Shown: positions 989-19,738 of the stretch, piece after piece
How positions within the stretch are numbered: position 1 is the first letter of the stretch
Layout of the letters: the number at the start of each line of letters is the position of its first letter
Source: Bdellovibrionales bacterium
Lineage (GTDB): Bacteria > Bdellovibrionota > Bdellovibrionia > Bdellovibrionales > JAMPXM01
Direction of reading: 5' to 3'
Length of the DNA stretch: 20,090 bases
Assembly (NCBI GenBank): GCA_043746165.1
Contig: JAYTRM010000225.1
Coordinates: forward strand, 1-20,090
Translations under genes and position numbers: made by a program
Notes under the pieces: model-generated
What the model was told of the DNA's origin: nothing
Seen by the model: only the letters and a program-made list of their open reading frames with translations
Databases searched by the model: none

Positions 989-1023
989 TTGCCAATTAGA
1001 CAGTGTTGATAAAGGAAGACCGT

Positions 1024-2001: not shown

Positions 2002-2004
2002 CGG

Positions 2005-2649
2005 ATGAAGAAATTTTCCTGTCCTTCTTGCGGCGCTGAAGTTTTAATTCAATCAACGGCTACGATTTTCACCGTCTGTAAATACTGCAAGTCAACTCTT
2101 GTCCGTAAGGATACGGATCTTGAGTCGATTGGCAAAATGGCCGATCTTAAAGAAGATGCGTCTCCCCTACAAATCGGAACCTCGGGCAAATACCGAGCAG
2201 CGGGACTTGTTGCCAGCGACTTTCTCGTCATCGGTCGCGTTCGCGTCAGTTGGGAAGATGGCTTTTGGAACGAGTGGTTTGTACGCTTTGACGACGGTCT
2301 TGGAGGCTGGTTGGCCGAAGCCCAGGGCGATTACATGCTGAGTTTTGAAGTCACCTCGCCGGTCACAGTTCCGAAGCTCACTGACCTTGAGCCCGAAAGT
2401 GAAGTGACAATTGGAAAAATCAAATACTTAGTGAGCGATATCAAAACGGTTACCTACACTTTTGCCGAGGGTGAGCTACCGTTCATAGCGCCGCAAGGTT
2501 TCAAGGGCCAATCAGTCGACCTCGAGGCCGGCGAAAATGACTTTGCGTCGATCAGCTATAGCCAAGAGGGAAACGATGTCTTCGTCGGTCACTATATAGA
2601 GTTTGATGATTTTCATTTTCAAAACCTAAGGGCGATTGATGGCTGGTGA
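2005..2649 (+). CDS. zinc-ribbon + DUF4178-like protein (YdjG/YdjH-like)
   Basis: The N-terminal 4-Cys ribbon is CPSCGAEV...CKYCKST. The downstream region is aromatic/Trp-rich (WEDGFWNEWFVRFDDGLGGWLAEAQGDY), as in DUF4178. The gene starts 3 nt after the SPFH gene stop. Confidence 0.75.
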   Translation: MKKFSCPSCGAEVLIQSTATIFTVCKYCKSTLVRKDTDLESIGKMADLKEDASPLQIGTSGKYRAAGLVASDFLVIGRVRVSWEDGFWNEWFVRFDDGLGGWLAEAQGDYMLSFEVTSPVTVPKLTDLEPESEVTIGKIKYLVSDIKTVTYTFAEGELPFIAPQGFKGQSVDLEAGENDFASISYSQEGNDVFVGHYIEFDDFHFQNLRAIDGW

Positions 2650-3976
2650 TTCCGATTCTAACCCGTCTAACCCGTCTGCCAAGACCATGCCCGCGCCACC
2701 GCCCGTCCAGCCAAGCGCGGGTTTGACGAGTTTCTCGTGCCCCTCATGTGGCGCCGCCGTCGTTTTGCACGCGGCCGGCGCGACTCTGACCGCGGCCTGT
2801 TCGGCTTGCGGCGCTATTTGCGACAATACCAACGGCACCTACACGCTTGTCTCAAAGTCACTTGCCAAGCAGACCATAAGACCTGCGATCGCTCTCGGCA
2901 CAAAAGGAAAACTCCGCGGGCAGCTTTACCAAGTGATTGGCTTCATGGTGCGCTCCGAAGAGAATTACCCTGACCAGGCTTGGGCCGAATATCTGCTCTA
3001 CAATCCGTATTTAGGTTTTGCCTGGCTGTCGGTTTACAATGGACACTGGACGCTTTACAAAACCACGAAAAATCAACCCAAAATGCTGCCCAACCGGCGC
3101 AGCTACACCTTTCACGGTGAGACCTACTCCGTATTTCACAACGCCACGGCTGTCGTGCGCTATGTGATCGGAGAATTTTACTGGCAAGTGCGCTCGGGTG
3201 AGAAAGTTAAGACTCTCGACGCAATTCACCCTCCACACATCATCTCTCGCGAACTAAGCGATGGCGAAAACGTTTGGTCGTTCGGCGACTACATCCGTAT
3301 CGATGAAATCAAAGCGGCGTTTAATCCGTCACCGCTGATCGCTCCGCTCGGCGTCGCCCCGAACCAACCCACTGAGACCGGTCGTGTCTCGATGAACTGG
3401 CTGATTTTCGCGCTCGCCGTAATCTTGCTTTTTCTAGCGCAGATTTATGGGCCGGCCTTCAAAGAACAAAAGGCGGTCGCTTCGCAGCGATTGATCGTTC
3501 CGGCCACGGGTTTGCATGACACCGAGATCGCCGGTTTTTCAAATCCCGAAAATTCGAGCCACGCAGTCATCCGGATCCGGGCTGACGTCAGCCAATCTTA
3601 CGTCACCGTCAATCTTCGCCTCGTTTCAGATGATCCTGGCAATACGACGGTCCACGAGTTTGAAAAAGATTTTTCTTATTACGAAGGCTACGAAGACGGC
3701 GAGCACTGGAGCGAAGGCGACAGTTCGTCAGAGTTTCTCATCAACGCGTTGCCACGCGGTCATTACCGAGTTCTCTTGAGCGCAACACCTGAGCCGGGAC
3801 ACAATGCGCTTCTCACGACGGAGGTCAATCTTGCGCCGCACGTTTGGTCGAATTTCTGGCTTGCAGTGTTTATCCTCCTCATCTATCCGGCTTGGATGGC
3901 ATTAAAATCAAGGTCGTTTGAACACCGCAGATGGGATGACAGCGAGTTCAATCCATTTGAAAAAGAAGATGATTAA
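2639..3976 (+). CDS. zinc-ribbon + DUF4178-like membrane protein, longer paralog with two TM segments and an extra C-terminal domain
   Basis: A Pro-rich N-terminus is followed by CPSCGAAV...CSACGAIC and a DUF4178-like region (QAWAEYLLYNPYLGFAWL, GEFYWQV). There is a TM at about residues 250-270 (WLIFALAVILLFLAQIYG), a roughly 110-aa domain, a second TM (FWLAVFILLIYPAWMAL) and an acidic tail. The ORF track start TTG 2636 is immediately followed by ATG 2639. The gene overlaps the upstream gene by 11 nt. Confidence 0.75.
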   Translation: MAGDSDSNPSNPSAKTMPAPPPVQPSAGLTSFSCPSCGAAVVLHAAGATLTAACSACGAICDNTNGTYTLVSKSLAKQTIRPAIALGTKGKLRGQLYQVIGFMVRSEENYPDQAWAEYLLYNPYLGFAWLSVYNGHWTLYKTTKNQPKMLPNRRSYTFHGETYSVFHNATAVVRYVIGEFYWQVRSGEKVKTLDAIHPPHIISRELSDGENVWSFGDYIRIDEIKAAFNPSPLIAPLGVAPNQPTETGRVSMNWLIFALAVILLFLAQIYGPAFKEQKAVASQRLIVPATGLHDTEIAGFSNPENSSHAVIRIRADVSQSYVTVNLRLVSDDPGNTTVHEFEKDFSYYEGYEDGEHWSEGDSSSEFLINALPRGHYRVLLSATPEPGHNALLTTEVNLAPHVWSNFWLAVFILLIYPAWMALKSRSFEHRRWDDSEFNPFEKEDD

Positions 3977-3990
3977 TATCGGGAGTCGTG

Positions 3991-4221
3991 ATGGCCGCAA
4001 ATGATACAGAAAAAAAAGAAGACCTTCCGAAGCCTCCCAGGCCGCAAACTCCGCGAAGCGTTTTGATCTATGCTGTCTTTTGCCTTGTCGTTGCGAGCGC
4101 GATGGCGGTGGCCAACCGCCGCGGATGGTTCCCAACTTATGGAATTTTTTCTGGTGAGAATTCAATGCACTCGCACTACCGCCCGATCTATTACGGCGGC
4201 TACGGCATTCATGGAAAATAA
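3991..4221 (+). CDS. small single-TM membrane protein, unknown function
   Basis: 76 aa. GGGAG (3981-3985) lies 5 nt upstream of ATG 3991. The N-terminus is charged and Pro-rich, followed by one hydrophobic helix (VLIYAVFCLVVASAMAVA) and a Tyr/Gly-rich tail. Support is weaker because the protein is small and has no recognisable family. Confidence 0.5.
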   Translation: MAANDTEKKEDLPKPPRPQTPRSVLIYAVFCLVVASAMAVANRRGWFPTYGIFSGENSMHSHYRPIYYGGYGIHGK

Positions 4222-4243
4222 ATTTTAAAGGAGTAGACTCAAA

Positions 4244-4462
4244 ATGGAAATCATCATGAACCCCGGTACCATCCTCAACGCCGTCATTTTCTCGATGATC
4301 GGTCTCTGTCTTTTCGGCTTCGGCTTTTGGATCATCGACCGTTTCACGCCCTATCATTTATGGAAAGAGGTGATCGAAGAAAAAAATATCGCCCTGGCGA
4401 TTATCGTCGGCGCTATCTCGATCGGCCTCTGCAACATTATCGCCGCCGCGATTAACGGCTAA
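4244..4462 (+). CDS. DUF350-like small two-TM membrane protein (E. coli YjfL-like)
   Basis: 72 aa. AGGAG (4229-4233) precedes ATG 4244. It has two hydrophobic helices separated by a WKEVIEEKNIALAI amphipathic segment, which is the size and pattern of the DUF350 family. Confidence 0.7.
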   Translation: MEIIMNPGTILNAVIFSMIGLCLFGFGFWIIDRFTPYHLWKEVIEEKNIALAIIVGAISIGLCNIIAAAING

Positions 4463-4470
4463 CTGCGTCA

Positions 4471-5973
4471 ATGGCTGTTCTTTTTCTCATCTCAGCTTTT
4501 GTCGTTTCGACCTGCGGGCTCATCTACGAACTGGTCAGCGGCGCTCTGGCCAGCTACCTGCTCGGCGATTCAGTCACTCAGTTTTCGATCGTGATCGGCG
4601 TTTATCTCTTTGCGATGGGGCTTGGCTCATACTTGACGCGTTTTGTCCGCGGCAACCTCGCTCTGACTTTTGTTTCGATCGAAATCGTGGTCGGTGTGGT
4701 CGGCGGCTTTTCGTCCGCCGCACTTTTCTTGCTCTTTGCTCACGTCACGCATTTTCGCGTGGCGCTTTACTTCTTTGTCACTCTTTCTGGCGCTTTGGTC
4801 GGTGCCGAAATTCCATTACTTCTCAGAATCTTGCAAGACCAGTTTGAATTTAAAGAACTCGTCGCCAAAGTTTTTGCCTTTGACTACGTCGGGGCGCTGA
4901 TTGCCTCGGTTCTCTTTCCTCTCTTATTTATTCCGCACCTGGGCATGATCCGCACGAGCTTCTTTTTCGGCATGCTTAACGTCACAGTCGCGCTCGTGAG
5001 CATTCACGTCCTTGGGAAGAAATCGCGAGGGTTCCTGGTGCTGCGCGGAAGCGCGCTCACCGCACTTATTGCACTGGTGATCGGATTTATTTATTCGGAA
5101 AAACTCGAATCATTCGCCGAGGCCTCGGTTTTTCCTGGTCAGGCAGTTTTCGCAAAGACGACGAGCTACCAGCGCATCTTGATCACGCGGCAAGAAAACG
5201 ACATTCGACTTTTTCTCAATTCGCATCTGCAATTTAGCTCGCGCGACGAGTACCGCTACCACGAAGCCTTGATTCACCCGGGCCTGAGCTCGATTGCTAA
5301 ACCCGAGCAAGTTTTGGTACTCGGCGGTGGCGACGGTATGGCCGTGCGAGAAATCCTCAAAGAGTCCGCTGTCAAAGCCGTCACCTTGGTGGATCTCGAC
5401 GGCGAGATGACTAAGATTTTTTCAACTCTTGATTTTCTTCGCAAGCTCAACGGCAGCTCATTTACTGATCCGCGCGTGACCGTGATCAACGACGATGCGT
5501 TTTTATGGCTTAAGGTTCATCCCGAAAAAAAATTCGACTTTATCGTTTTGGATTTTCCGGATCCCGCCAATTACTCAATTGGCAAGCTCTACACTCTCAC
5601 TTTCTTTCGGCTGCTCCGCGAGGCTTTGGCAGACGGTGGACGGGTTGTCATTCAAAGCACCTCTCCCCTTGCCGCGCGTAAGTCTTACTGGTGCGTGGCC
5701 CATACGCTAGCGGCGGCCGGTTTTTCAGTCGTAACGCCTTACCATACTTACGTACCTTCGTTTGGCGAGTGGGGATTTGTTATGGGTTCCGAAACGCCAT
5801 TTCAACCTTCGCGTCTGGTGCCAGGCCTTAAATTTATCAGGCCTGAGTCGATCGCGGCGCTGCTTGAATTTCCGCTCGACATGGCCGAAGTCCCGACTGA
5901 GATCAATCGCCTCAACAACCAGGCGCTGGTTCGCTACTACGAAGCCGAGTGGTCAGAATTCATGGTGAATTGA
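4471..5973 (+). CDS. speE: polyamine aminopropyltransferase (spermidine/spermine synthase family) fused to an N-terminal polytopic membrane domain
   Basis: The C-terminal half carries the spermidine-synthase signature LVLGGGDGMAVREIL, DLDGEM and FDFIVLDFPDP. The first roughly 210 aa contain about 7 hydrophobic helices. The gene starts 8 nt after the DUF350 gene stop. Confidence 0.85.
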   Translation: MAVLFLISAFVVSTCGLIYELVSGALASYLLGDSVTQFSIVIGVYLFAMGLGSYLTRFVRGNLALTFVSIEIVVGVVGGFSSAALFLLFAHVTHFRVALYFFVTLSGALVGAEIPLLLRILQDQFEFKELVAKVFAFDYVGALIASVLFPLLFIPHLGMIRTSFFFGMLNVTVALVSIHVLGKKSRGFLVLRGSALTALIALVIGFIYSEKLESFAEASVFPGQAVFAKTTSYQRILITRQENDIRLFLNSHLQFSSRDEYRYHEALIHPGLSSIAKPEQVLVLGGGDGMAVREILKESAVKAVTLVDLDGEMTKIFSTLDFLRKLNGSSFTDPRVTVINDDAFLWLKVHPEKKFDFIVLDFPDPANYSIGKLYTLTFFRLLREALADGGRVVIQSTSPLAARKSYWCVAHTLAAAGFSVVTPYHTYVPSFGEWGFVMGSETPFQPSRLVPGLKFIRPESIAALLEFPLDMAEVPTEINRLNNQALVRYYEAEWSEFMVN

Positions 5974-5974
5974 G

Positions 5975-7633
5975 ATGCTATCGCGCCGCCAAGCTTTAAA
6001 GCAGATCACCGCGTTTGCTGCGCTCGTAGCTGGTGGTTTGACTCTGGTAAAACGTAAGAAACCAAGCGAGACTGATTTTCCAGTCAGACTTCTCGGCCCA
6101 ACATTAGCCGCCGGGCACCGCCTACGAAGCGGCGATAAATTTCCCGAGCCAAGTGCTACCCGCAAAGCTCAAGTCGTGATTGTCGGAGGCGGCATTGCAG
6201 GACTTTCAGCGGCGTGGCGACTCAAGAAAAAGGGAGCTACCGATTTTCACATTTTGGAGCTAGAGCCCGAGATCGGCGGTAATTCTCGTTCGGGCAGAAA
6301 CTCCGTCAGTCGCTATCCCTGGGGCGCCCACTACGTGACCTTGCTCAGTGAAGAAGCTAGCATTGCCCGCGAGCTTCTCTCCGAACTCGGCATTATCACC
6401 AGCCATCGCGGTGAGGCGACAACTTACAACGAATACGATCTCTGTCATGCTCCTCACGAACGCCTTTACATCGCCAGAAAGTGGCAAGAGGGACTTGTTC
6501 CCAAAATCGGCACCTCAGCCGAGGACACCGAACAGACAAATGAATTTTTTAGGCATGTCGAAGAAATGCGCTTCAAAAAAGGTCGTGATCAGAAGCCGGT
6601 GTTTGCGATTCCCCTCGAATTCAGCTCGCGCGATCCGGAGCTTTTAAAATTAGATCAGATCACAATCGCCGACTACATGTGGGCTCGCGGCTGGAATTCG
6701 CAGGCGTTGCATTGGTATGTTAACTATTGCTGCCGAGATGACTACGGAACTCCTCACACGCAAACTTCGGCTTGGGCAGGACTCCATTATTTTAGCTCTC
6801 GCCGTAGTCAAAGCGAAGGCGCAGCGGGAACTTCCGTCATTACCTGGCCTGAAGGCAACGGCCGTATCGTCGACGGACTCGAGAGTTTGATTCAAGATCC
6901 CAATCAAGATCCCAATCACGAACGTATTCACCGGGGGCAAATGGCGATTCGCGTACAGAACGTAAAAAGCGGGGTGGAGGTCGACGCGCTCGATACGAAA
7001 ACTGGTCTTGTGACGCGCTGGCAGGCCCAAGCAGTCATCGTGGCTTCACCACGGTTTATCGCGGCTCGCCTCGGGCCCGAGCTCACTGATCAACAGAGCG
7101 TTTTTTTAAAAGATCTCTCTTATTCCCCATGGGTTGTCGCCAACATCACATTAAAATCCTTACCCGTGAACAATCGACCTAACCCGGGCGCTCCGCTTTC
7201 GTGGGATAACGTTATTTATCAAAACGACTCGCTCGGCTACGTCGTCGCCAATCACCAGGACACGAAAATTCACTCTGGCGAAACCGTGTGGACATATTAC
7301 CGTCCCCTCGACGCACTTTCTCCGGCCGAGGCGCGCGAGGAGGCGATCAAGCGCCAGCCATCTGAGTGGCGCGAAATAATTTTAGCCGATCTCGGCGTCG
7401 CTCATCCTGATTTGACCGAGCTCATCACCTCGATGGATGTCTGGGTCTGGGGTCACGCGATGATTCGCCCGACGCCGGGTTTTATCTGGGGCGAAACCCG
7501 CCGGGCCATGCAGAAGCCGTTGGGTAAAATTCACTTTGCCCACTCAGACATGAGCGGCCTCTCGCTTTTTGAGGAAGCCAATTTCCACGGCGCACGGGCG
7601 GCCGACGAGGTCATAAGCCATGGCCTCACCTAA
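5975..7633 (+). CDS. FAD-dependent oxidoreductase (amine-oxidase/phytoene-desaturase superfamily) with twin-arginine (Tat) signal peptide
   Basis: The N-terminus MLSRRQALKQITAFAALVAGG contains the S-R-R-x-A-L-K Tat motif plus a hydrophobic h-region. The Rossmann dinucleotide motif VVIVGGGIAGLSAAWRL is followed by an acidic residue at the end of the second beta-strand (ILELE). The gene starts 1 nt after the speE-like stop. Confidence 0.85.
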   Translation: MLSRRQALKQITAFAALVAGGLTLVKRKKPSETDFPVRLLGPTLAAGHRLRSGDKFPEPSATRKAQVVIVGGGIAGLSAAWRLKKKGATDFHILELEPEIGGNSRSGRNSVSRYPWGAHYVTLLSEEASIARELLSELGIITSHRGEATTYNEYDLCHAPHERLYIARKWQEGLVPKIGTSAEDTEQTNEFFRHVEEMRFKKGRDQKPVFAIPLEFSSRDPELLKLDQITIADYMWARGWNSQALHWYVNYCCRDDYGTPHTQTSAWAGLHYFSSRRSQSEGAAGTSVITWPEGNGRIVDGLESLIQDPNQDPNHERIHRGQMAIRVQNVKSGVEVDALDTKTGLVTRWQAQAVIVASPRFIAARLGPELTDQQSVFLKDLSYSPWVVANITLKSLPVNNRPNPGAPLSWDNVIYQNDSLGYVVANHQDTKIHSGETVWTYYRPLDALSPAEAREEAIKRQPSEWREIILADLGVAHPDLTELITSMDVWVWGHAMIRPTPGFIWGETRRAMQKPLGKIHFAHSDMSGLSLFEEANFHGARAADEVISHGLT

Positions 7634-8714
7634 TCAGCAGCCCTGGATCAGATCGCGTCAGTTCGACGTTTGTTTTATTCTCGCGCCCGCATTTGCGACA
7701 AGTTTTTTTGTGCTTTTTTTCCGTCACTGGCTTCAGCCTTATGCCGAAGTGGGCCCTGTTGCCTGGCTCATGCTCGTTGTCGGGATTGATGTTGCGCACG
7801 TCTATTCTTCACTATTTCGAACCTACTTAGATCGCAATCTCAAGGCGAGACCTTTGCTCTGGCAAGTTCCGCTCGTTTGTTGGGTGATAGGAGCACTACT
7901 TTATTCGGTCAGACCTGAAATTTTTTGGTCGGGCCTCGCGTATTTTGCGGTTTTTCACTTCGTTCGTCAGCAGTACGGCTTTGTCATGATCTACTCACGC
8001 TTTGAAAAGCACACGAGATTGAGCCGCGCTCTCAATCAGTTGGTGATCTATGCCGCTACCGTTTACCCTCTTCTTTACTGGCACTCCCACCTCCCACGGC
8101 GCTTTGTTTGGTTTATCGAGGGCGATTTTTTTTTCGCGGTACCGGCCTCGGTCACAAGCACCTTTGGTTGGATTGAAGTTGCTTTGCTCAGCATTTACGC
8201 GGCTCGTGAAATCCGGGCGTACTGGTTTCATAAAAGCTTCAACCTCCCTCGCAACTTACTCATTCTGGGCACGCTCGCCTCGTGGACGATCGGCATCGTT
8301 TCGCTCAACAACGATCTAGCATTCACCATCACCAACGTAATATCGCACGGCATTCCCTACGTCGCTTTATTGTGGCACTACGGCAATCGCAAAGATCCCA
8401 CGCCGGGTTTTAAAATTCTCCGGCAAAATTTGTTCTGTGCTCGCTGGGTGCCGATTTTTCTCGGGCTTCTTTTGCTCTTAAGTTATCTCGAAGAAGGACT
8501 CTGGGATGGGCTCGTGTGGCGCGATCACCTGCAGCTTTTTCCCCAGTTCGCGGCTCTTCCAATTCTCACCGATTCGAATTTGCTCGTTGTTTTGGTGCCA
8601 TTTTTGGCTTTGCCGCAAGCCACACATTACTTGTTTGATGCTTTTTTGTGGAGAAGTACGGGTACCGATAATGGCTGGAAAAGCATCTTGTCAGGCGCGG
8701 GAGATTTAAAATGA
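7620..8714 (+). CDS. polytopic integral membrane protein of unknown function (about 8 TM)
   Basis: The 364-aa ORF is hydrophobic throughout, with no recognisable catalytic motif. It overlaps the upstream oxidoreductase by 14 nt and the downstream speH by 4 nt (ATGA), so it is embedded in the polyamine operon. Confidence 0.75.
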   Translation: MASPNQQPWIRSRQFDVCFILAPAFATSFFVLFFRHWLQPYAEVGPVAWLMLVVGIDVAHVYSSLFRTYLDRNLKARPLLWQVPLVCWVIGALLYSVRPEIFWSGLAYFAVFHFVRQQYGFVMIYSRFEKHTRLSRALNQLVIYAATVYPLLYWHSHLPRRFVWFIEGDFFFAVPASVTSTFGWIEVALLSIYAAREIRAYWFHKSFNLPRNLLILGTLASWTIGIVSLNNDLAFTITNVISHGIPYVALLWHYGNRKDPTPGFKILRQNLFCARWVPIFLGLLLLLSYLEEGLWDGLVWRDHLQLFPQFAALPILTDSNLLVVLVPFLALPQATHYLFDAFLWRSTGTDNGWKSILSGAGDLK

Positions 8715-9058
8715 CCTTCTCTGTCGGCATTCACCATCTCGTCGAACTCAAAGACTGCGACCCTCGCGCGATCAATGATCTTGAAGGGCTACGTTTGGCG
8801 CTTCTCAATGCCGTCGAAGCTTCAGGCGCCACGATCATCACCGATGTTTTTCACCCGTTTTCTCCGCATGGAGTGACCGGAGTCATCGTTATCGCCGAAT
8901 CCCATGTCTCGATCCACACCTGGCCTGAACTCGGCTATGCCGCACTCGACATTTTCACTTGCAGTCACAAAATGAACTCCCAACTCATTGTGGATCAATT
9001 GAAGGCTTTCACATGTTCGAAAACCCTGGAAGTCTCTAGTTACAGACGAGGACCCTAG
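8711..9058 (+). CDS. speH: S-adenosylmethionine decarboxylase proenzyme, small pyruvoyl type (SpeH/SpeD class 1)
   Basis: 115 aa. The conserved ...VIVIAESHVSIHTWPELGYAALDIFTC block is present. Glu63-Ser64 (codons 8897-8902) is the canonical self-cleavage site that generates the pyruvoyl group. Confidence 0.9.
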   Translation: MTFSVGIHHLVELKDCDPRAINDLEGLRLALLNAVEASGATIITDVFHPFSPHGVTGVIVIAESHVSIHTWPELGYAALDIFTCSHKMNSQLIVDQLKAFTCSKTLEVSSYRRGP

Positions 9059-9293: not shown

Positions 9294-9830
9294 ATGAAAT
9301 CATTTAGTGTCGTCGCTTTAACGTTCGCGGTCACCATCTCAACGGCTTTTGCAAAAGAACACTTTAAAGTCCACACGCACCAAGACGTGATCAAACGGTA
9401 CACCTATTGGAAAGTTGCGAGCGTGGTCGATTACTTCTCATTCCTTCAAGAGGCAGACGACGCAGCGAGGGAGAAAAAAATTCTCGCTTGCGATCCGAGC
9501 CTTGAGCAAGCGCGAGATATATTCGGCGGCGAACTTCACTCCCTCGCCGACGGCGCAAGGAGGCCTGAACTCGACCGCTATCTTAAAAATCCGGTGAGCT
9601 ACGTTGGTCGCATCAAGACATGCGTTGCCGACTGCAGTTGCAATGCCATCGCGATGGTCCTAGCCGACGCTGATCTCACGCTGAATGATAAGGCAGAACA
9701 CAACCGAAATAAAACAGATTTGGATGCGAGTATCAAAGCGCAGCCCAAGGATCAAGACCTCGTCTGCGCGAAAAAAATGACTTGGTACTGCGGCAGCGGC
9801 CTGCAGACTTATCTTTATAAAAGCAAATAG
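9294..9830 (+). CDS. secreted Cys-rich protein of unknown function
   Basis: The signal peptide MKSFSVVALTFAVTISTAFA is clear, with cleavage predicted before KEHF. The mature part has 7 Cys, so disulfides are likely. GAGGG is upstream of the start. Confidence 0.7.
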   Translation: MKSFSVVALTFAVTISTAFAKEHFKVHTHQDVIKRYTYWKVASVVDYFSFLQEADDAAREKKILACDPSLEQARDIFGGELHSLADGARRPELDRYLKNPVSYVGRIKTCVADCSCNAIAMVLADADLTLNDKAEHNRNKTDLDASIKAQPKDQDLVCAKKMTWYCGSGLQTYLYKSK

Positions 9831-9839
9831 GGAGCCTTG

Positions 9840-10400
9840 ATGAAACAATCCACGCCCATACCGGCTCACGTTGTACCTCTGAACTTCTCCCTAGCTTTTA
9901 TTATGGTCGTTGCAACAATTCTTGCAACGCCTAGGGCAGCCCGATCGCAAACTGATGATGAGCCGAAGCCTCATAAAAAGGGTCTGATCGACCAGGTCAG
10001 CGGCCAAGGCTTCGGCATGGCTGGCTGCGGTGTCGGATCTATTTTATTTGGCGAGACGCCTGGCCTCGCCCAAGTTGCTGCCTCACTCACCAATCAAATT
10101 TACTTCAACAACACCTTTGCTGGAACTTCGGGAACTTCCAACTGCGAAGACGCCGACCCTATCGACGCGAGAACAGCGCAAGTATTCATCGACTCAAACC
10201 GCGTCGCGATCGAAAACGATATCGCCAAAGGTAGCGGCGAGACTCTGCAGGCTTTTTTTGAACTCGCCGGTTGCAGCCCACGTGGTGAATCTACCTTAAG
10301 CCTTCATCGCCATTACCAAGAGATATTTGTTCCGGGTGCAAAAAGCATCGACGTAGTAAAATCGATTCGTCAATTCACAACCTGCTCGCGCCTAGGATGA
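9840..10400 (+). CDS. secreted small protein, DUF3015-like, paralog A
   Basis: GGGAG (9830-9834) is 5 nt upstream of ATG 9840. The ORF track starts at TTG 9837. There is a hydrophobic N-terminal signal/anchor. It shares GCG-x-GS, SGTSNC, IAKGSGET, LHRHY..IFP and a C-terminal C-x-x-LG with the next gene. Confidence 0.75.
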   Translation: MKQSTPIPAHVVPLNFSLAFIMVVATILATPRAARSQTDDEPKPHKKGLIDQVSGQGFGMAGCGVGSILFGETPGLAQVAASLTNQIYFNNTFAGTSGTSNCEDADPIDARTAQVFIDSNRVAIENDIAKGSGETLQAFFELAGCSPRGESTLSLHRHYQEIFVPGAKSIDVVKSIRQFTTCSRLG

Positions 10401-10432
10401 ATTTTGATGACCTGTAAGAAAGGACTTAGAAA

Positions 10433-10909
10433 ATGACAAAGCGCTTTGCCTACCTCACTTTTACGGCCATCACGCTCTTAGCTCACTGCTGCTGGGGCGC
10501 AAGCAGACCATACGGCTCGGGAGGCTGCGGCCTCGGAAGTTTAGTGATGGGTAAGGATGGCAACCAAGTTCTTGCGATGACTCTAAATGCGACGGGTACT
10601 CAGACTTTTGCCATAAGCTCGGGAACCAGCAATTGCATCGACGGCGGGCTCATCAAAAAGAAAAAACAAGTTCGCGCCTTCATAGAGATCAACAACCAAA
10701 AGCTTGCGAGCGAGATTTCAAAAGGCCGCGGCGAGACTGTCAGTAGTCTGTCAAGGCTTCTTGATTGCCAAGATGACCAGGCCTTTGCATTGGGTTTACA
10801 CCGCCACTACTCAACTATTTTCCCGACAGAAAATACGCCTGCCGCCGAGGTTGAGCACGCCATTCGAAGCGTGATCAAAATTGACCTCGCGCAAATCTGT
10901 CTCGGATAA
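10433..10909 (+). CDS. secreted small protein, DUF3015-like, paralog B
   Basis: The signal peptide is MTKRFAYLTFTAITLLAHCCWGA. The protein is colinear with paralog A and has the same four conserved Cys positions (GGCGLGS, SGTSNC, LLDC, ICLG). Confidence 0.75.
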   Translation: MTKRFAYLTFTAITLLAHCCWGASRPYGSGGCGLGSLVMGKDGNQVLAMTLNATGTQTFAISSGTSNCIDGGLIKKKKQVRAFIEINNQKLASEISKGRGETVSSLSRLLDCQDDQAFALGLHRHYSTIFPTENTPAAEVEHAIRSVIKIDLAQICLG

Positions 10910-10912
10910 CCT

Positions 10913-12739
10913 GTGCTTCGGACCCTAGGGATCATTATGATCCTGACCAGCTCGGTCAGCGCGGCCGGCCAGGTGGCCGAGCTTTCCAAGTCCTCGGCCT
11001 GGCAAAAGCTGAATCATTTTCACCGCGTTGATCCAGTGACGGAGCTGAAACGGAACCTCGAACTCTTTCGAAACTCGCAAGCTGATAGGGCTCAGATTAA
11101 CGACGATAGCCAACTTGAACAAAAGCCCGAATGCCAAATGCCGGCGAGATTTATCTTTTTCAAAAAAAACCTGCCGGAAGCCTCGAGCTGGCTGATGCCC
11201 CGTTGCCCGAAGTGGCAGCACTTCTCGCAAGGATTAGCGGCCAAGTCGGTCACCCTGGTTTTTTCAAGTTATTATCTAGGAAATCCGACTTCGGCATTCG
11301 GTCACACTTTTTTGCGGCTTAATCGCGACGATGTCGGGCACGAACATCAGAGCCTGCTCGATTCAGGTGTTGGTTTTGCGCTGAGTGCAACAAAACAAAA
11401 TTCTATTTCGTACCTATTGGGAGGAATGCTGGGCTGGAACCTCGGCGAGTTCTCGGTCGTCCCCTATTACTTGAAAGTTTTAGAGTACAACAATTTTGAG
11501 TCACGCGACCTCTGGGAGTATGATCTCAATCTAACGCCAGAGGAGATCGAACTCTTAGTCGCTCATCTTTGGGAGCTCGGCCACGCGCAAATTCATTATT
11601 CCTACCTCAACCACAACTGCAGCTCGTTAGTTCTGGCCGCTCTCGAGGCCGCAGCCCCGAGACTGAATCTCCTAGGCCGCCTACCGTTCTGGGTTTTGCC
11701 CGCCGAGTCCGTCAAGGTGCTCTACCAAGAACCGGGCCTAGTCGGGGGATTTCATTACCGAGCGTCAAAGCGTTCGCAATCTGAGTTCGCTCTCGGAGGC
11801 CTCTCACCTGGCGACCGCAAAGAAGTGACAGAGATTTTAGAAACCAACGCGGCACCGATTGTCCATGGCGATGATCCTGCGCGCGAGCTCGACACGGTGA
11901 TCGATTTCATCGATTATCGATATTTTAAAGAGCTTCTTAAAGGCGATGTCGACGTTCAAAGGCGAAAGCAAGCTGCGTTGGTAGCTCGCAGTCAACTTCC
12001 TGCAGAAGCTGGCTTTGATCAGCAAGCTTCGATTCCCGCACAGGAAATTCCGCAGACCTCCCACGCACCGTCTCGACTCCAGGTTGGCCAACTCATTTCA
12101 CGTCTCGGTGAACGCTCACTTCTTATCGGACAGCGCTTTGCGCTGCATGACCAACTCGATCCGCAACAGGGGTATCCCGAAAGTTCAGAAATCGGCTTTT
12201 TTGACTTCGGCATTCGAGTTCTAAAACAGCCTAGCGTGATCGAGGATAATCAGGGCACAATCCGGGTCGACCATCTCTACGCTTTAAATCTCAAATCATA
12301 CCCTGATCTCACACGGTTGATACCGACTTCATCATGGAATTTTCGTCTCGGCGCCGAACGAACGTGGGACGAATCTTGCCTCAACTGCGTCGCCGGCGTA
12401 ATCGGCGCGGCTTCTGGCGCAAGCTTTAGCGTTCATAAAAAATTGATCGCCACGATTCTCCTTACCGGTGACCTCTCCACTTCCACAGAGTTTTCCAGCT
12501 CACCAGTGAAAAGTCGCCTCGGTCCAGAATTCAACCTACGAGCTATAATCACTCCCCGCCTCGTCTTCAACATAAACTCAACGTATTTACATCTTTTCTT
12601 TGCCGGGCCACCCGACACCTACCGAGTGACTGAAGAGATTCGCTGGACTTTAGCGGAGCCGCTCGCCGCCGGCCTGAAGTTTCAGCAATTACCTCGCGGC
12701 GACGTCGAGTCGTCGGCAAGTTTATATTATTACTACTGA
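10913..12739 (+). CDS. large signal-peptide protein. The N-terminal periplasmic domain is possibly Lnb-N/DUF4105-like and the C-terminus looks like an outer-membrane beta-barrel ending in ...LYYYY.
   Basis: The GTG start is 3 nt after the paralog B stop. The signal peptide is MLRTLGIIMILTSSVSAAG. AFGHTFLRLNRDD resembles the motif I recall for DUF4105, but the family assignment is uncertain. The C-terminal third has alternating hydrophobic strands and an aromatic C-terminus, typical of an OMP beta-signal. Confidence 0.7.
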   Translation: MLRTLGIIMILTSSVSAAGQVAELSKSSAWQKLNHFHRVDPVTELKRNLELFRNSQADRAQINDDSQLEQKPECQMPARFIFFKKNLPEASSWLMPRCPKWQHFSQGLAAKSVTLVFSSYYLGNPTSAFGHTFLRLNRDDVGHEHQSLLDSGVGFALSATKQNSISYLLGGMLGWNLGEFSVVPYYLKVLEYNNFESRDLWEYDLNLTPEEIELLVAHLWELGHAQIHYSYLNHNCSSLVLAALEAAAPRLNLLGRLPFWVLPAESVKVLYQEPGLVGGFHYRASKRSQSEFALGGLSPGDRKEVTEILETNAAPIVHGDDPARELDTVIDFIDYRYFKELLKGDVDVQRRKQAALVARSQLPAEAGFDQQASIPAQEIPQTSHAPSRLQVGQLISRLGERSLLIGQRFALHDQLDPQQGYPESSEIGFFDFGIRVLKQPSVIEDNQGTIRVDHLYALNLKSYPDLTRLIPTSSWNFRLGAERTWDESCLNCVAGVIGAASGASFSVHKKLIATILLTGDLSTSTEFSSSPVKSRLGPEFNLRAIITPRLVFNINSTYLHLFFAGPPDTYRVTEEIRWTLAEPLAAGLKFQQLPRGDVESSASLYYYY

Positions 12740-12812: not shown

Positions 12813-14192
12813 TCAACGGACGATTTGTTTAAGTGCGTTGAAAAAATACGAGTCGATCTTTTTAAGGATTGTTCCTTCCATATCGAGCACGGCTTGACTT
12901 GGATTCATCGCCGGCGAGCCCTGTGTTTTGAGAACCCGCTGGCAGAACTCGTTGGCAACCGCCACAATCTTCGTCATTGGATGGATTTGCATCCGGCTCA
13001 TCCGATTCGGAAAGCCTTCACCGTCGCAACTCTCATGATGCTCGCGCACGATCCGGATCACGACCTCCGGCATCGAATTCGATTGACTTAGGACCTCGGC
13101 GCCACGGGTGGCATGTGTATCGTAAAACGCCCGAACGCTTTGCGGCCAATTCTCTCTTGGCGTATTCAAAATACCCGGATGAATATCGCGTAAGCCGATA
13201 TCATGAAGTAAAGCCGCGGCGGTGAGATTGAGTAAATCCGTTGGATTTTCCCAACCCAAAGCTTTGGCAATCATGACGGAGTAAACGCTGACACCGACAC
13301 CGTGACTAAAGAGGTTATCGACGTGCTGGCTTAGCATGTGCAAGAGTTCGTTCATTTCGGCTGATTCGGCCAAAAGGTTAACAGTCGACTGCACGTACGC
13401 CATCGAGCTCTCAAACAATGCGGTATCGAGTCCGTCTTTGGATAGTTGGTCGATAAAAACTTCGGACGTGTGACGAAGGATATCGATACGCCGTTCGTTA
13501 CGCACCGGATCGCTAACGACCGGCTTTGAGCGCCCCTTGAAATTTGTACCAAGGAAATGACGGAAATCTGCTCCGCGCAAAAATAAAAACTCAACGCCTT
13601 TGCCGCGAATTTCTTCCACTCGTTTATTAGTCAAATCAATCCCGCGGTGAGCGATCTTGACGAATTTCTTGACTGATAGCTGCAAAAATATGGGGTAGTT
13701 AGCAAACTTCGGTTGCGAGAACTCGCTGATCAGGATTTTCGCGTAATCATCGTCGAGTTCGGGTTCTGCTTGGCCCACGGAGATTTTCTGCCCAGCCGAC
13801 TTCGGGGAGGTCGATCTGCCAGAGGACATCTTCAAGCAGGCAGCGACTGCCTTGATGATACTTTCGCTTTCGATCGGCTTCATCACAAAAGCATCGGCAA
13901 GCCGTGACTCTGAATCCTGGCCGGCGACCTGACTTTGCAGAACTTCGGCCATATCTGTCATAAGGACGAGCGGCAGACTCGAATTTTCGCGGATGTATTT
14001 TGAAATCTCCAGACCGTCGACGTGCTCGCCGCCGACGTCGCAGACGACGATATCAAAAACCTGTTTTCGTATAAAAGTCATCGCTGTCTTAGAATCATGC
14101 GCCAGAACCACTTCATGGCCAAAGGCGGTGAACGTTTTTTGCAATTTTGTAGACGCACTCTCATCTTCGTCAATCAGTAGAATTCGACTCAC
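12813..14192 (-). CDS. response regulator: N-terminal receiver (REC) domain plus C-terminal HD-GYP-type phosphodiesterase domain (GFP variant of the GYP motif)
   Basis: REC has the acidic pair at the start (LLIDEDE), the phospho-acceptor Asp52 in DIVVCDV, LVLMTD and FVMKP. The HD domain has LLHDIGL (H330-D331) and HHESCDGEGFP (residues 385-395, nt 13008-13040). The GTG start overlaps the upstream stop (GTGA). Confidence 0.9.
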   Translation of the reverse strand: MSRILLIDEDESASTKLQKTFTAFGHEVVLAHDSKTAMTFIRKQVFDIVVCDVGGEHVDGLEISKYIRENSSLPLVLMTDMAEVLQSQVAGQDSESRLADAFVMKPIESESIIKAVAACLKMSSGRSTSPKSAGQKISVGQAEPELDDDYAKILISEFSQPKFANYPIFLQLSVKKFVKIAHRGIDLTNKRVEEIRGKGVEFLFLRGADFRHFLGTNFKGRSKPVVSDPVRNERRIDILRHTSEVFIDQLSKDGLDTALFESSMAYVQSTVNLLAESAEMNELLHMLSQHVDNLFSHGVGVSVYSVMIAKALGWENPTDLLNLTAAALLHDIGLRDIHPGILNTPRENWPQSVRAFYDTHATRGAEVLSQSNSMPEVVIRIVREHHESCDGEGFPNRMSRMQIHPMTKIVAVANEFCQRVLKTQGSPAMNPSQAVLDMEGTILKKIDSYFFNALKQIVR

Positions 14193-15238
14193 CTGAGCTC
14201 CGTTACGAGCGCCCGCTGTTCCGGTCGGCCCATTGCAAATAAAAATGGATCCTTGGCCTGGAGGTCTGTAAAATCTTGCTTGGACTTCAGTCCCCGCCAG
14301 TCGTTTTCAATCAAGATTTGGCCGATCGCTCCACCGAGGGTACTGCCAGGCCCAAGAAGTACCAGGTGGTCAGGTGCAAATTCTTTCAAAGCGACAGATA
14401 CGTCCGCGGTAAAATTGTATTTCTCGACTACTTGATCAACCAATGTGTAGCGATACAGGTTTTCGACATCTGTCGTGTACGGACTCCAAATGCAACCTCT
14501 TCCGTCAATCAAAGGAATTTCGGGACGAGCAAAAAGCTCGGGCTTTAAGAGTTCAAGCGCCCTGTTACTTGTCGATTTTAGCAATGGCGTATGGAAAGCT
14601 GCATGGTTGATCAGCTGAAAAGGATAATTCTCTTCGACCGGCAAAGCCTTGAGTAAAAGCGGAATTGCCGCTTTCGTCGCCCCGATCACCGCGTATCCGC
14701 CCAGATCAATTGAAACGTAACACTCACACCCGGCTTGGCGAGACACTTTCGCGATTGCATCTCGCACCAGCTCAATTCTCTTGGGAGACTTCACCCATTT
14801 CTCATCGACTACCGGATAAATCACTTGGCCGCCGATGACGTCTTCTTTCATCATCGAGCCCATGGTATTTACGACTTCAAACCCCCCGGCCCAATCAAGA
14901 CTTCCGCCAAACGCGGCGGCCAAGTACCAGCCCATAGAATTACCAGTGACCGCGACGATTTCAAATCGCGCGCGATCAATGGCCATGAAGTCGGCGTAAG
15001 ATGAGGCATATATCAACGCCGAAGCGTGTTCACCTTTGGTATGCAAATTAGGTTTAAAAATATCAGCCGAGTCGAGCTCGGTGATTGTTGGCACATTGAG
15101 TTTACGACGACGTTCATCGATATCAGCAATGAAGTCTTGAACCCCGCCACCATAATTACGGAGATAGCCCAACGTCTCCTTGGTGTAGGTTCCGCGCCCG
15201 GGGCAAATGACTACGACTCTTTTTTTCACCGCGTTCAC
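14189..15238 (-). CDS. FabD-family acyltransferase (malonyl-CoA:ACP transacylase-like fold), probably not malonyl-specific
   Basis: It is colinear with E. coli FabD. VVVICPGRGTYT matches FVFPGQGSQT. GNSMG, with nucleophile Ser101, matches GHSLG. NHAAFHTP matches VPSHCALM. The position aligning with the malonyl-carboxylate-binding Arg117 (VEMRGKF) appears to be Met (VNTMGSM), by eye alignment. The GTG start is 1 nt after the E1 gene stop. Confidence 0.85.
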   Translation of the reverse strand: MNAVKKRVVVICPGRGTYTKETLGYLRNYGGGVQDFIADIDERRRKLNVPTITELDSADIFKPNLHTKGEHASALIYASSYADFMAIDRARFEIVAVTGNSMGWYLAAAFGGSLDWAGGFEVVNTMGSMMKEDVIGGQVIYPVVDEKWVKSPKRIELVRDAIAKVSRQAGCECYVSIDLGGYAVIGATKAAIPLLLKALPVEENYPFQLINHAAFHTPLLKSTSNRALELLKPELFARPEIPLIDGRGCIWSPYTTDVENLYRYTLVDQVVEKYNFTADVSVALKEFAPDHLVLLGPGSTLGGAIGQILIENDWRGLKSKQDFTDLQAKDPFLFAMGRPEQRALVTELR

Positions 15239-17742: not shown

Positions 17743-18912
17743 ATGAAAGCGTACGAATCACTCAATTACTTGCAAGAAGATGGCTTACTGACGAGCGACG
17801 AGATCATGATTCGCGATTCCGTTCGCGATCTCGTCGATAAAGAAGTCATGCCGACTCTGCAGGCCGCTAATCGCGACGAGAAGTTCCCTGCGCACTTGAT
17901 TCCCCGCTTTGCGGAGATGGGTTTGCTCGGCTCGACCATTCAGGGGTACGGCTGCGCGGGCCTCGGGCATGTCGCGTACGGCTTGACGATGATGGAACTT
18001 GAGCGCGGCGACTCGGGCATACGCTCCTTTTGCTCCGTGCAGGGCGCGCTGGTCATGTATCCGATTTACACTTACGGCTCGGAAGCGCAAAAAGACAAAT
18101 ACCTCTCCAAACTCGCCAAAGCGCAATTGATTGGTTGCTTTGGCCTCACCGAGCCCGACGCAGGATCAAACCCTGGCTCAATGCGTACCGCTGCCGTTAA
18201 AGTTCCCGGCGGCTACAAGCTGAACGGCAATAAAATGTGGATCACCAACGGCTGCATTTCTGACATCGCCGTCGTCTGGGCTAAACTTGACGGAGAAGTC
18301 CGAGGTTTCATCATCGAAAAGGGCACTAAGGGCTTTTCGACCAGCACAATGAAGGGCAAATTCTCGCTCCGGGTCAGCGTCACTTCGGAGCTCCATATGC
18401 AAGACTGCGTTGTTCCTGAGGAGAATCTGCTTCCTAAGGGCGTTGGCCTCAAAGCGCCGCTGAGCTGTCTCACGCAAGCTCGCTACGGCATTGCCTGGGG
18501 CGTCTTGGGCGCCGCTAACCAGTGCTTCGACGTCGCCCTCAACTACGCAAAAGAACGGACGATCTTCGACGGAAAAGCACTTTCACACTACCAGCTGGCC
18601 CAGGCAAAACTCGTGAAAATGGCGCAAGAAATCACCAAGGGCAAACTGCTCGTCATTCAGGCAGGAAGACTCAAGGAAGCCGGTAAACTCGAGCCCCATC
18701 ACGTTTCACTTATTAAGATGAACAATTGCCGCGCGGCTCTCGATATTGCTCGCGATGCCCGCGACCTCCTCGGCGCCAATGGCATCATCGACGAGTATCC
18801 AGTGATTCGCCACATGATGAACCTCGAAACCGTGAACACTTACGAAGGTACCGAAGACGTTCACAGGCTTGTGATTGGCCAAGCTCTTACAGGGCAGGCG
18901 GCTTTCCGTTAA
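17743..18912 (+). CDS. gcdH: glutaryl-CoA dehydrogenase (acyl-CoA dehydrogenase family)
   Basis: AAGGAG is 7 nt upstream of the ATG. Long blocks are near-identical to eukaryotic and bacterial GCDH (GYGCAGLGHVAYGL, ELERGDSGIRSF.SVQGALVM.PIYTYGSEAQKDKYL, LIGCFGLTEPDAGS). The C-terminal YEGTEDVH contains the catalytic Glu. Confidence 0.9.
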   Translation: MKAYESLNYLQEDGLLTSDEIMIRDSVRDLVDKEVMPTLQAANRDEKFPAHLIPRFAEMGLLGSTIQGYGCAGLGHVAYGLTMMELERGDSGIRSFCSVQGALVMYPIYTYGSEAQKDKYLSKLAKAQLIGCFGLTEPDAGSNPGSMRTAAVKVPGGYKLNGNKMWITNGCISDIAVVWAKLDGEVRGFIIEKGTKGFSTSTMKGKFSLRVSVTSELHMQDCVVPEENLLPKGVGLKAPLSCLTQARYGIAWGVLGAANQCFDVALNYAKERTIFDGKALSHYQLAQAKLVKMAQEITKGKLLVIQAGRLKEAGKLEPHHVSLIKMNNCRAALDIARDARDLLGANGIIDEYPVIRHMMNLETVNTYEGTEDVHRLVIGQALTGQAAFR

Positions 18913-19738
18913 GTGTCCCTTTGAGCTCGCTCCAATAGAGCGGGCTCTGTGCGATGTTACCGTGCTCAAATCCCGGCAAAAGAATCAGCTTAAGGCGAGG
19001 AATCTCGGCCTTCAAATCAATCGAGTTTTGCACTGGCACGGTTGCATCCCGATCACCGTGAAAGATCAACACCGGTGCTTTAACTTGGGCGAGCCATAAG
19101 TTTTGTTGAAGCTTGTATTTCAAAATAAAATTAAGCAGAAACTCTGGCAAAAATGGGAGCGTTCGTCGCGCCATACGCCCCATGCTGTAGTAAGGCGACT
19201 CCAAAACTAAGAGGTCGCAGCCCTGAGCCGATGCCAAGTAGCTCGCTAAACCGGTGCCGATCGAACGACCGTAAATGACAAATTGCAGCCCCCTTGCCTT
19301 GGCTTCGGCAGAGGCCTTTTGCCCAAACATATCGGCCAGGCTTAGAAGCTGCAGCTGTGAAGAAATGGCCCCGGTAGACTTGCCGTAGCCAGGGAAATCC
19401 ATGATCCAAACAACGGAATTTGTATTTTGCGCGAGTTCCTCGGCGACCTCGCCCCAGGATGATAGATTTCCGGCATTGCCGTGAAAATACAAAATTAACG
19501 AATGGGGCTTATCGGGCTCGAAAATCAGACTATGGATTTTCTCGTCTCCGCCACTCACCGTCAGGTCGAGAGTTCTCTCGCTATAGGCCGTCTTGAATTG
19601 GAAATGGAAGGCATCGGGCAGAGCATCAGCGACGAAAATAAGCTTTTCCTGAAGCACAAAGAGCACCAGGAGAAAAATGGCCAGTAAAGTAGCAGCGAGG
19701 ACGAGGTACGAAAGAATCACGGTTTTTACATTTCCCAC
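18887..19738 (-). CDS. membrane-anchored alpha/beta-fold hydrolase (ABHD-like serine hydrolase)
   Basis: The GTG start has an N-terminal TM (VILSYLVLAATLLAIFLLVLFVL). The oxyanion motif is HGNAGN, the nucleophile elbow is GRSIGTG, the acid is in HGDRDATVP and the His is in GFEHGN. The 3' end overlaps the gcdH 3' end by 26 nt (convergent). Confidence 0.8.
   Translation of the reverse strand: MGNVKTVILSYLVLAATLLAIFLLVLFVLQEKLIFVADALPDAFHFQFKTAYSERTLDLTVSGGDEKIHSLIFEPDKPHSLILYFHGNAGNLSSWGEVAEELAQNTNSVVWIMDFPGYGKSTGAISSQLQLLSLADMFGQKASAEAKARGLQFVIYGRSIGTGLASYLASAQGCDLLVLESPYYSMGRMARRTLPFLPEFLLNFILKYKLQQNLWLAQVKAPVLIFHGDRDATVPVQNSIDLKAEIPRLKLILLPGFEHGNIAQSPLYWSELKGTLNGKPPAL

Follow-up and report, generated by a model that had tools for sequence, protein, structure and literature searches.

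A barrel-anchored Lnb_N-type protein and its DUF3015 neighbours form a conserved envelope module, a candidate outer-membrane acyltransferase or phospholipase system

To our knowledge, acyl transfer on outer-membrane lipids is known only from a few barrel enzymes, PagP, PagL, LpxR and OMPLA (PldA), all studied in Gammaproteobacteria. In these the barrel itself bears the active site, which is turned towards the outer leaflet. Enzymes of the permuted NlpC/P60 type, with the histidine before the cysteine, generally act on acyl-lipid bonds (PMC12994826). Lnb, the lipoprotein N-acyltransferase of Bacteroides, is a 398-residue inner-membrane protein with five transmembrane helices, in which Cys148 is essential for lipoprotein N-acylation and a triad Asn66-His49-Cys148 has been proposed (PMC11573676). 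Tox-Act1, a toxin of the type VI secretion system (T6SS), cleaves phosphatidylglycerol and phosphatidylethanolamine, and DUF4105 is placed as its sister clade (PMC12994826). Here we analyse a window of 20,090 bp, the entire metagenome contig k141_2027988 (ENA ERZ27314304) of a Bdellovibrionales bacterium, in which an Lnb-type catalytic domain is joined to an outer-membrane barrel (gene g4) and preceded by two genes for small four-cysteine proteins of the DUF3015 family (g2 and g3), a pairing to which this domain is genetically locked in several hundred species of Bdellovibrionota, Myxococcota and their relatives. Together the three genes make up one copy of an envelope module that is conserved and has two components, and we propose, with a probability of roughly 0.55, that g4 is an acyltransferase or phospholipase of Cys-His type, anchored in the outer membrane and facing the periplasm, that works with DUF3015.

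Four plus-strand open reading frames (ORFs) span positions 9294-12739 with gaps of 9, 32 and 3 nucleotides (g2 starting at ATG 9840), the succession that a sequence-only reading of this DNA had described. A secreted six-cysteine protein of 178 residues, g1 (9294-9830), is followed by the distal DUF3015 paralog g2 (9840-10400; 186 residues from the ATG, 187 from TTG 9837), the proximal paralog g3 (10433-10909, 158 residues) and g4 (10913-12739, 608 residues, GTG start, C-terminus ...SLYYYY). Signal peptides were judged by a heuristic that combines a hydrophobic window with the -3/-1 rules; by this measure all four proteins have signal-peptide-like N-termini, in keeping with the envelope targeting suggested earlier, and they would presumably be cleaved on export. 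That reading had also taken the four genes as one unit, which the comparisons below reduce to three.

The core of the module is g4. It matches PF13387 Lnb_N, formerly DUF4105 (E 4e-46, 157.1 bits against a cut-off of 22.2), over residues 104-272, so that the permuted NlpC/P60 domain occupies positions 11222-11728 on the plus strand, and PF25222 DUF7840 (E 2e-24, 86.9 bits against a cut-off of 27) over residues 380-607. An AlphaFold2 model built on a 45-sequence alignment (predicted local distance difference test score, pLDDT, 91.1; predicted template-modelling score, pTM, 0.90) has helices at 17-108, an alpha/beta domain at 112-283, further helices at 286-360, a coil at 361-387 and twelve strands at 388-607. 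The strands alternate in hydrophobicity and the last one is aromatic-rich in nearly all 45 homologs; the outer-membrane beta-barrel (residues 388-608, 12074-12736, plus strand) thus ends in a C-terminal beta-signal, ...SLYYYY. In a fold comparison the barrel matched 12-stranded outer-membrane proteins and the enzyme domain matched TseH and YiiX. The sequence-only reading had rightly foreseen a barrel with an aromatic end, but it is found at 388-607 rather than at 430-608, and to call the protein merely outer-membrane-protein-like falls short, as it also holds a conserved Cys-His catalytic domain of Lnb type. Hydrophobic helices after the g4 signal peptide were looked for and none is present, the C-terminal part being the barrel. 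A profile search of the PDB with g4 homologs gave nothing at E<=1; matches of the isolated Lnb_N domain to a histidine kinase, pertussis toxin S5 and TqaA were judged spurious, and a Pfam match to Pertus-S5-tox (E 0.066) is noise of the same kind.

Conservation in g4 is highest in the NlpC/P60 domain. Across the 45 homologs, which share 31-49% identity, H131, N235 and C236 are invariant and D150 is at least 90% conserved; His131 (11303-11305), Asp150 (11360-11362) and Cys236 (11618-11620), all on the plus strand, are the putative catalytic residues. The histidine precedes the cysteine by 105 positions, compared with 99 in Lnb and 108 in TseH (PMC11573676), and the cysteine stands in an NC motif; this order, spacing and motif fit the permuted, LRAT-like branch of the superfamily. 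A weak local alignment puts g4 residues 128-238 onto positions 45-149 of the NCBIfam Lnb profile, with H131 and C236 near Lnb His49 and Cys148, and by this alignment and the spacing the putative catalytic residues would agree with Lnb His49, Cys148 and Asn66.

The likeness to Lnb thus covers the catalytic family, a permuted NlpC/P60 histidine and cysteine at similar spacing, an extracytoplasmic site next to a membrane and, by analogy, probably an acyl-thioester chemistry. We nevertheless rejected g4 as Lnb itself: it scores 15.5 bits against a cut-off of 550 for the Lnb equivalog NF051878, in a local match at residues 128-238 only, and it belongs to the other membrane, with no transmembrane helices and instead a 12-stranded barrel and two helical domains. 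A DUF3015 partner, reported here for g4-type loci, has not been reported for Lnb. Classical lipoprotein N-acylation takes place at the inner membrane, before Lol sorting, and the outer-membrane location of g4 makes this role unlikely. Tox-Act1 and TseH (PDB 6v98) are soluble secreted toxins with immunity genes and T6SS contexts (PMC12994826), whereas g4 resides in the outer membrane and its gene belongs to a conserved chromosomal pair that has no secretion system around it. Unlike in OMPLA, LpxR, PagP and PagL, the catalytic residues of g4 lie in a separate papain-like domain fused N-terminal to the barrel, and the Pfam scan gave no family relation to any of these four. By analogy, g4 would work most like Lnb and LRAT-type acyltransferases or phospholipases, differing from the characterised systems as a variant of the permuted NlpC/P60 type.

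On which side of the membrane does the enzyme sit? Barrels assembled by the beta-barrel assembly machinery (BAM) begin strand 1 in the periplasm. If g4 follows this rule, its model fits N-terminal domains docked beneath the barrel on the periplasmic side, because no element of the barrel outside its strands is more conserved than the long turn T1 (residues 413-424, consensus HDxLDPxxGYP; conservation 0.65), turns T3-T5 are tight at 2 residues each, and the predicted external loops are short, at 4-10 residues. We also note conserved polar residues along the barrel's periplasmic rim, H384, R388, R408, H412, D413 and D416 (window ~12062-12160), while the predicted external loop L3 has a conserved CxxC (C489, C492; ~12377-12388). 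Such residues might make up a docking surface or a second functional site.

Both small proteins belong to PF11220 DUF3015, g2 with E 5.3e-28 (98.1 bits) and g3 with E 2e-34 (119 bits), against a gathering threshold of 25 bits, and they share 37% identity across 90 residues (E 1e-15) together with the motifs GCG.GS, SGTSNC, I.KG.GET and LHRHY..IF. The sequence-only reading was thus right to call them paralogs, and the HMM (hidden Markov model) check that it advised for DUF3015 and Lnb-N/DUF4105 matched both families. The family motifs GCG.G, SGT..C and G.GE are carried by both. Among 37 diverse DUF3015 sequences G31, C32, G33, G35, S63, G64, T65, C68, G98 and G100 are invariant, and the N-terminal half holds the invariant residues (GCGLGS, N52, F59, SGTSNC), followed by G.GE. 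Two conserved cysteine pairs had been suggested earlier: the mature parts of g2 and g3 do have four cysteines each, but across the family invariance is limited to the first pair (GCG and SGTSNC). The second is specific to a subfamily, present in most Bdellovibrio/Myxococcus-type members (exactly four cysteines in 85 of 106 domain sequences) and missing in Nitrospirae-type ones.

The N-terminal pattern of g2 and g3 is the same in DUF3015 homologs. In g3 a convincing signal peptide, MTKRFAYLTFTAITLLAHCCWGA followed by S, contains two extra cysteines and leads into a conserved Gly/Ser/Thr-rich segment between C32 and C68 and a C-terminal helical bundle with C112 and C156; in g2 a 14-residue n-region and the h-region LNFSLAFIMVVATILA are followed by a linker rich in charged residues and proline, and the DUF3015 domain occupies residues 57-177. 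We considered g3 as a lipoprotein on account of its LLAHC sequence and dropped this, because a histidine at -1 does not fit a lipobox and the homologs show sites of AxA type. When DUF3015 was modelled alone, the conserved half came out at low pLDDT and the helical bundle at ~97; a segment so highly conserved yet not confidently folded by itself suggests, at the level of the model, that it becomes ordered on a partner. A PDB profile search with DUF3015 found nothing at E<=1.

The strongest link between the two families is genetic. We took g4 homologs from one genome per species, using the best 80 of 563 relatives, and counted upstream genes in the 75 genome loci with at least 700 nucleotides of upstream sequence. 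DUF3015 lies directly upstream on the same strand in 71 of these 75, as one ORF in 40 and as two in 31; in three it is placed elsewhere or an ORF-boundary artefact is involved, and one locus has no DUF3015. Starting from DUF3015 instead, a g4-like ORF stands just downstream on the same strand in 54 of 62 assessable metagenome loci, adjoins it convergently in 6 and is missing in 2. Even distant DUF3015 proteins, from one Nitrospirae metagenome-assembled genome (MAG) and two unassigned metagenome contigs, are paired with a g4-type gene. Seen from either gene, the linkage is therefore tight.

Genomes of Bdellovibrionota, Myxococcota, Thermodesulfobacteriota and Nitrospirae have the module, which is vertically conserved in them, and its carriers include Bdellovibrio bacteriovorus (L015, L034) and Anaeromyxobacter species (L003, L063). 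The nearest relatives of the present contig are Pseudobdellovibrionaceae and other Bdellovibrionota MAGs, at 42-49% g4 identity. Secreted effectors or surface structures of a predatory or host-associated bacterium had been put forward for this cluster. The conserved catalytic domain of g4 points to an enzymatic system and not to any obvious secreted effector or surface structure, and vertical conservation across four phylum-level groups argues for envelope housekeeping over predation- or host-specific functions. Nor is the number of DUF3015 paralogs a matter of strain-level variation, for which a check had been advised: the tandem, present in 31 of 75 loci, is an old arrangement, judging from sequence comparison. 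The g3 gene is the ancestral-type copy; the proximal DUF3015 is g3-like in 28 of 31 two-copy loci and the single copy in 34 of 42, and distal copies are more divergent, 17 of 32 falling into one neighbour-joining clade.

Apart from DUF3015, just one neighbour recurs, in 33-34 loci (including L005, L008, L012, L018, L019, L021, L027, L029, L035, L046 and L057): an alpha/beta hydrolase (Hydrolase_4/Abhydrolase_1) that frequently has a lipobox. In ~20 of 75 loci its gene abuts the g4 homolog at the 3' end, and in further ones it lies no more than ~1.7 kb off. This hydrolase may serve the module as a facultative third component, perhaps as a lysophospholipase. The window itself has only a distant relative (26-30% identity) at 18887-19738 on the minus strand, 6 kb away and in the opposite orientation. 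In the Nitrospirae MAG locus L084 (SCVN01000002.1, 5001-10513) a PhdYeFM antitoxin/PIN toxin pair stands between DUF3015 and the g4 homolog, which is followed by an alpha/beta hydrolase gene and then by a gene for MlaA (outer-membrane lipid asymmetry).

We propose the following mechanism. After export by Sec, the g4 protein would enter the outer membrane with the help of BAM, via its C-terminal 12-stranded barrel, with the helical and permuted NlpC/P60 domains hanging off strand 1 on the periplasmic side, docked on T1. By analogy with Lnb, the LRAT/PLAAT enzymes and Tox-Act1, the attack on an ester-linked acyl chain of a glycerophospholipid, most likely drawn from the inner leaflet of the outer membrane, would come from Cys236; His131 would activate this cysteine, and Asp150 would be the third residue of the site. 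The resulting thioester would then pass its acyl group to water, making g4 a phospholipase A, or to an acceptor, making it an acyltransferase. The reaction would require the DUF3015 proteins as periplasmic partners, secreted and probably disulfide-bonded, acting as regulator or adaptor, as carrier of the lipid or of the acceptor, or as the acceptor itself, and the segment GCGLGS...SSGTSNC would likely become ordered only on binding g4. A bolder version, which we consider doubtful, makes DUF3015 the dedicated substrate: g4 would move a phospholipid acyl chain onto its Gly/Ser/Thr loop or its new N-terminus, perhaps passing DUF3015 through or into the barrel, and this would amount to an outer-membrane lipidation or insertion route independent of Lgt/Lsp/Lnt. 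If so, it would be a new pathway of outer-membrane lipid homeostasis or surface lipoproteins common to Bdellovibrionota, Myxococcota and Nitrospirota.

DUF3015 and the Lnb_N-DUF7840 architecture are catalogued by Pfam without function. In the accessible parts of the literature on DUF4105 and DUF3015 we found no description of the barrel-fused Lnb_N form or of its pairing with DUF3015; the searched literature yielded no mention of DUF7840, DUF7843, PF25222, PF25225 or PF13387, and for PF11220 only a fungal secretome study. If the proposed chemistry is true, the module would represent a second, structurally unrelated way of remodelling or sensing outer-membrane lipids, and DUF3015, DUF7840 and DUF7843 would gain a testable function. 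By HMM score g2, g3 and g4 are ordinary members of uncharacterised families, with the architecture and pair found in several hundred genomes, and the result for the window alone is modest. Two features set it apart from the usual DUF7843-Lnb_N-DUF7840 loci: the extra g1 in front, and a gap in g4. Most of 951 g4 homologs carry an N-terminal PF25225 DUF7843, which in g4 stays below the HMM threshold, with no match in the Pfam scan or in the precomputed domains of P0001. A conserved segment of ~23 residues (consensus G..SE.D....FF.S..G), kept in the nine representative homologs displayed, is lost from g4 at about residues 36-42 (window ~10985-11050), hence the missing PF25225 match; the invariant flanking residues W30, H35 and E44 are kept.

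Several points weigh against the acyltransferase/phospholipase proposal. Through the loss of this segment the present g4 copy could be functionally impaired. Its predicted signal peptide (residues 1-19, 10913-10969, plus strand; MLRTLGIIMILTSSVSAAG followed by Q) exists only if translation starts at GTG 10913, 3 nucleotides past the g3 stop and with a poor Shine-Dalgarno sequence; the database gene call, ATG 10937 (600 residues), has a better one (AGGGA) and removes the signal peptide. Homologs of g4 have signal-peptide-like N-termini. The ATG is probably a mis-called start, or translational coupling is at work. The enzyme would end up outside the cell if the linker 361-387 or the helix 346-360 ran through the pore. 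Genetic linkage means shared function, not physical contact. Among solved structures the closest is TseH, initially presented as a cell-wall cysteine hydrolase, and a peptide substrate is thus conceivable. Finally, as the sequence-only reading had supposed, function in this family is unstudied: we found no biochemical or genetic study of any member of the module in the literature.

Could the barrel instead display the enzyme? In EstA, a type Va autotransporter esterase (PDB 3kvn), a GDSL passenger is linked to the barrel by a pore-spanning helix, and the g4 barrel might likewise export the NlpC/P60 domain to the cell surface as a lipase or acyltransferase acting on prey, host or neighbouring membranes, with DUF3015 as a periplasmic chaperone or inhibitor. 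We regard this as unlikely: the Pfam scan (E<=0.1) gave no autotransporter family, the non-autotransporter 12-stranded barrels NanC, Tsx and KdgM score equally, strand 1 is preceded in the model by a 27-residue coil rather than a helix, and conservation outside the strands peaks in periplasmic turn T1. The module is also equally conserved in non-predatory Myxococcota, Nitrospirae and Thermodesulfobacteriota. A barrel gene always preceded by one or two small secreted paralogs, whose conserved Gly/Ser/Thr/Asn-rich segment is not confidently folded alone, also recalls a secretion and processing system, in which DUF3015 would be cargo (major and minor subunits), translocated as by FapF for the Fap amyloid and processed or acylated by the papain-like domain. 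Such a reading is quite doubtful, however. The FapF match is unspecific, because any 12-stranded barrel resembles the others; the helical bundle of the DUF3015 model, well folded and probably holding a disulfide, would be hard to thread through a 12-strand pore, and neither repeats, including imperfect amyloid-like ones, in the DUF3015 alignment nor recurrent Fap- or curli-like genes nearby were seen.

There is also a slim chance that g4 is a tethered peptidase, cutting peptidoglycan stems or other periplasmic peptides with DUF3015 as its inhibitor or activator. The domain does fall within the NlpC/P60 papain-like superfamily (PMC10318531), TseH was deposited as a cysteine hydrolase, and tethering in the periplasm beside the wall is plausible; but g4 is of the permuted type, whose characterised members LRAT/PLAAT, Lnb, Tox-Act1 and, in liposome assays, TseH act on acyl-lipid bonds (PMC12994826, PMC11573676), and the Pfam match is specifically to Lnb_N. 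Very improbable, in our opinion, is a toxin-immunity pair, with g4 as a membrane-damaging lipase akin to Tox-Act1 and the DUF3015 copies as periplasmic immunity proteins. The sister relation of DUF4105 to Tox-Act1 (PMC12994826) would agree with it, and tandem small periplasmic proteins beside a lipase do resemble immunity gene arrays. Against it, T6SS, contact-dependent inhibition (CDI), Rhs and mobile-element genes are absent from the window and not recurrent in the 80 loci, and a PADLOC scan of the window had no matches. Moreover, the outer membrane in which g4 is anchored is the producer's own, both partners keep invariant motifs across phyla, unlike fast-evolving immunity genes, and 82 of 83 loci have a single g4 homolog in the stretch read (L051 has two). 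The periplasm-facing acyltransferase/phospholipase with DUF3015 as partner is thus the reading that we prefer.

The first gene, g1, belongs to a separate family. Its signal peptide (MKSFSVVALTFAVTISTAFA followed by KEH) is convincing by the same heuristic, and Pfam, NCBIfam and PADLOC gave no match. A word-indexed protein search returned only g1 itself, missing every relative; an exhaustive phmmer search brought up 50 distant relatives (E<=1e-10 for 16), and because of these we dropped the notion of an orphan. The family, ~50 cluster representatives of 160-230 residues with no Pfam model, consists of secreted proteins or lipoproteins (many relatives have lipoboxes) with six conserved cysteines, including a C...C.C motif; five of the six (C66, C110, C114, C116 and C158) are invariant, and the other, C166, is almost so. 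None of its members occurs in any of the 83 loci with the module. In the three contexts examined (L089, L090, L091) the g1 relative overlaps by 4 nucleotides the 3' end of a gene of ~520 codons, Polysacc_deac_1 in L091, and is translationally coupled to it; DUF3015 is not nearby in any of the three. We therefore rejected g1 as a fourth component: it is an unrelated six-cysteine secreted protein, a chance neighbour in front of the module, although with a gap of 9 nucleotides it is probably co-transcribed with g2 in this contig.

Upstream of g1 an operon at 1003-9058 on the plus strand encodes an SPFH/Band7 protein, two DUF4178 proteins, a small ORF and a DUF350 protein, followed by a 500-residue spermidine-synthase-like protein, a flavin adenine dinucleotide (FAD) amine oxidase, a 364-residue multi-pass membrane protein without Pfam match and an S-adenosylmethionine (AdoMet) decarboxylase. 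It looks like a membrane-stress/polyamine cluster, and the sequence-only reading had attached meaning to the position beside it. This proximity is incidental: an SPFH/DUF4178/spermidine-synthase/AdoMet-decarboxylase operon does not recur beside the DUF3015-g4 module in the 80 loci, and a functional link was rejected on this ground. Across the region GC content is flat, the Rfam scan of the window found no RNA family, and the promoter and terminator scan found nothing exceeding background to mark operon boundaries. On the 3' side of g4, convergent genes on the minus strand (12813-15238) encode a response-regulator/HD-GYP-type (HD_5) protein and a 349-residue protein without Pfam match, and beyond them lies a gene for a 736-residue E1-type 2-oxoacid dehydrogenase fusion.

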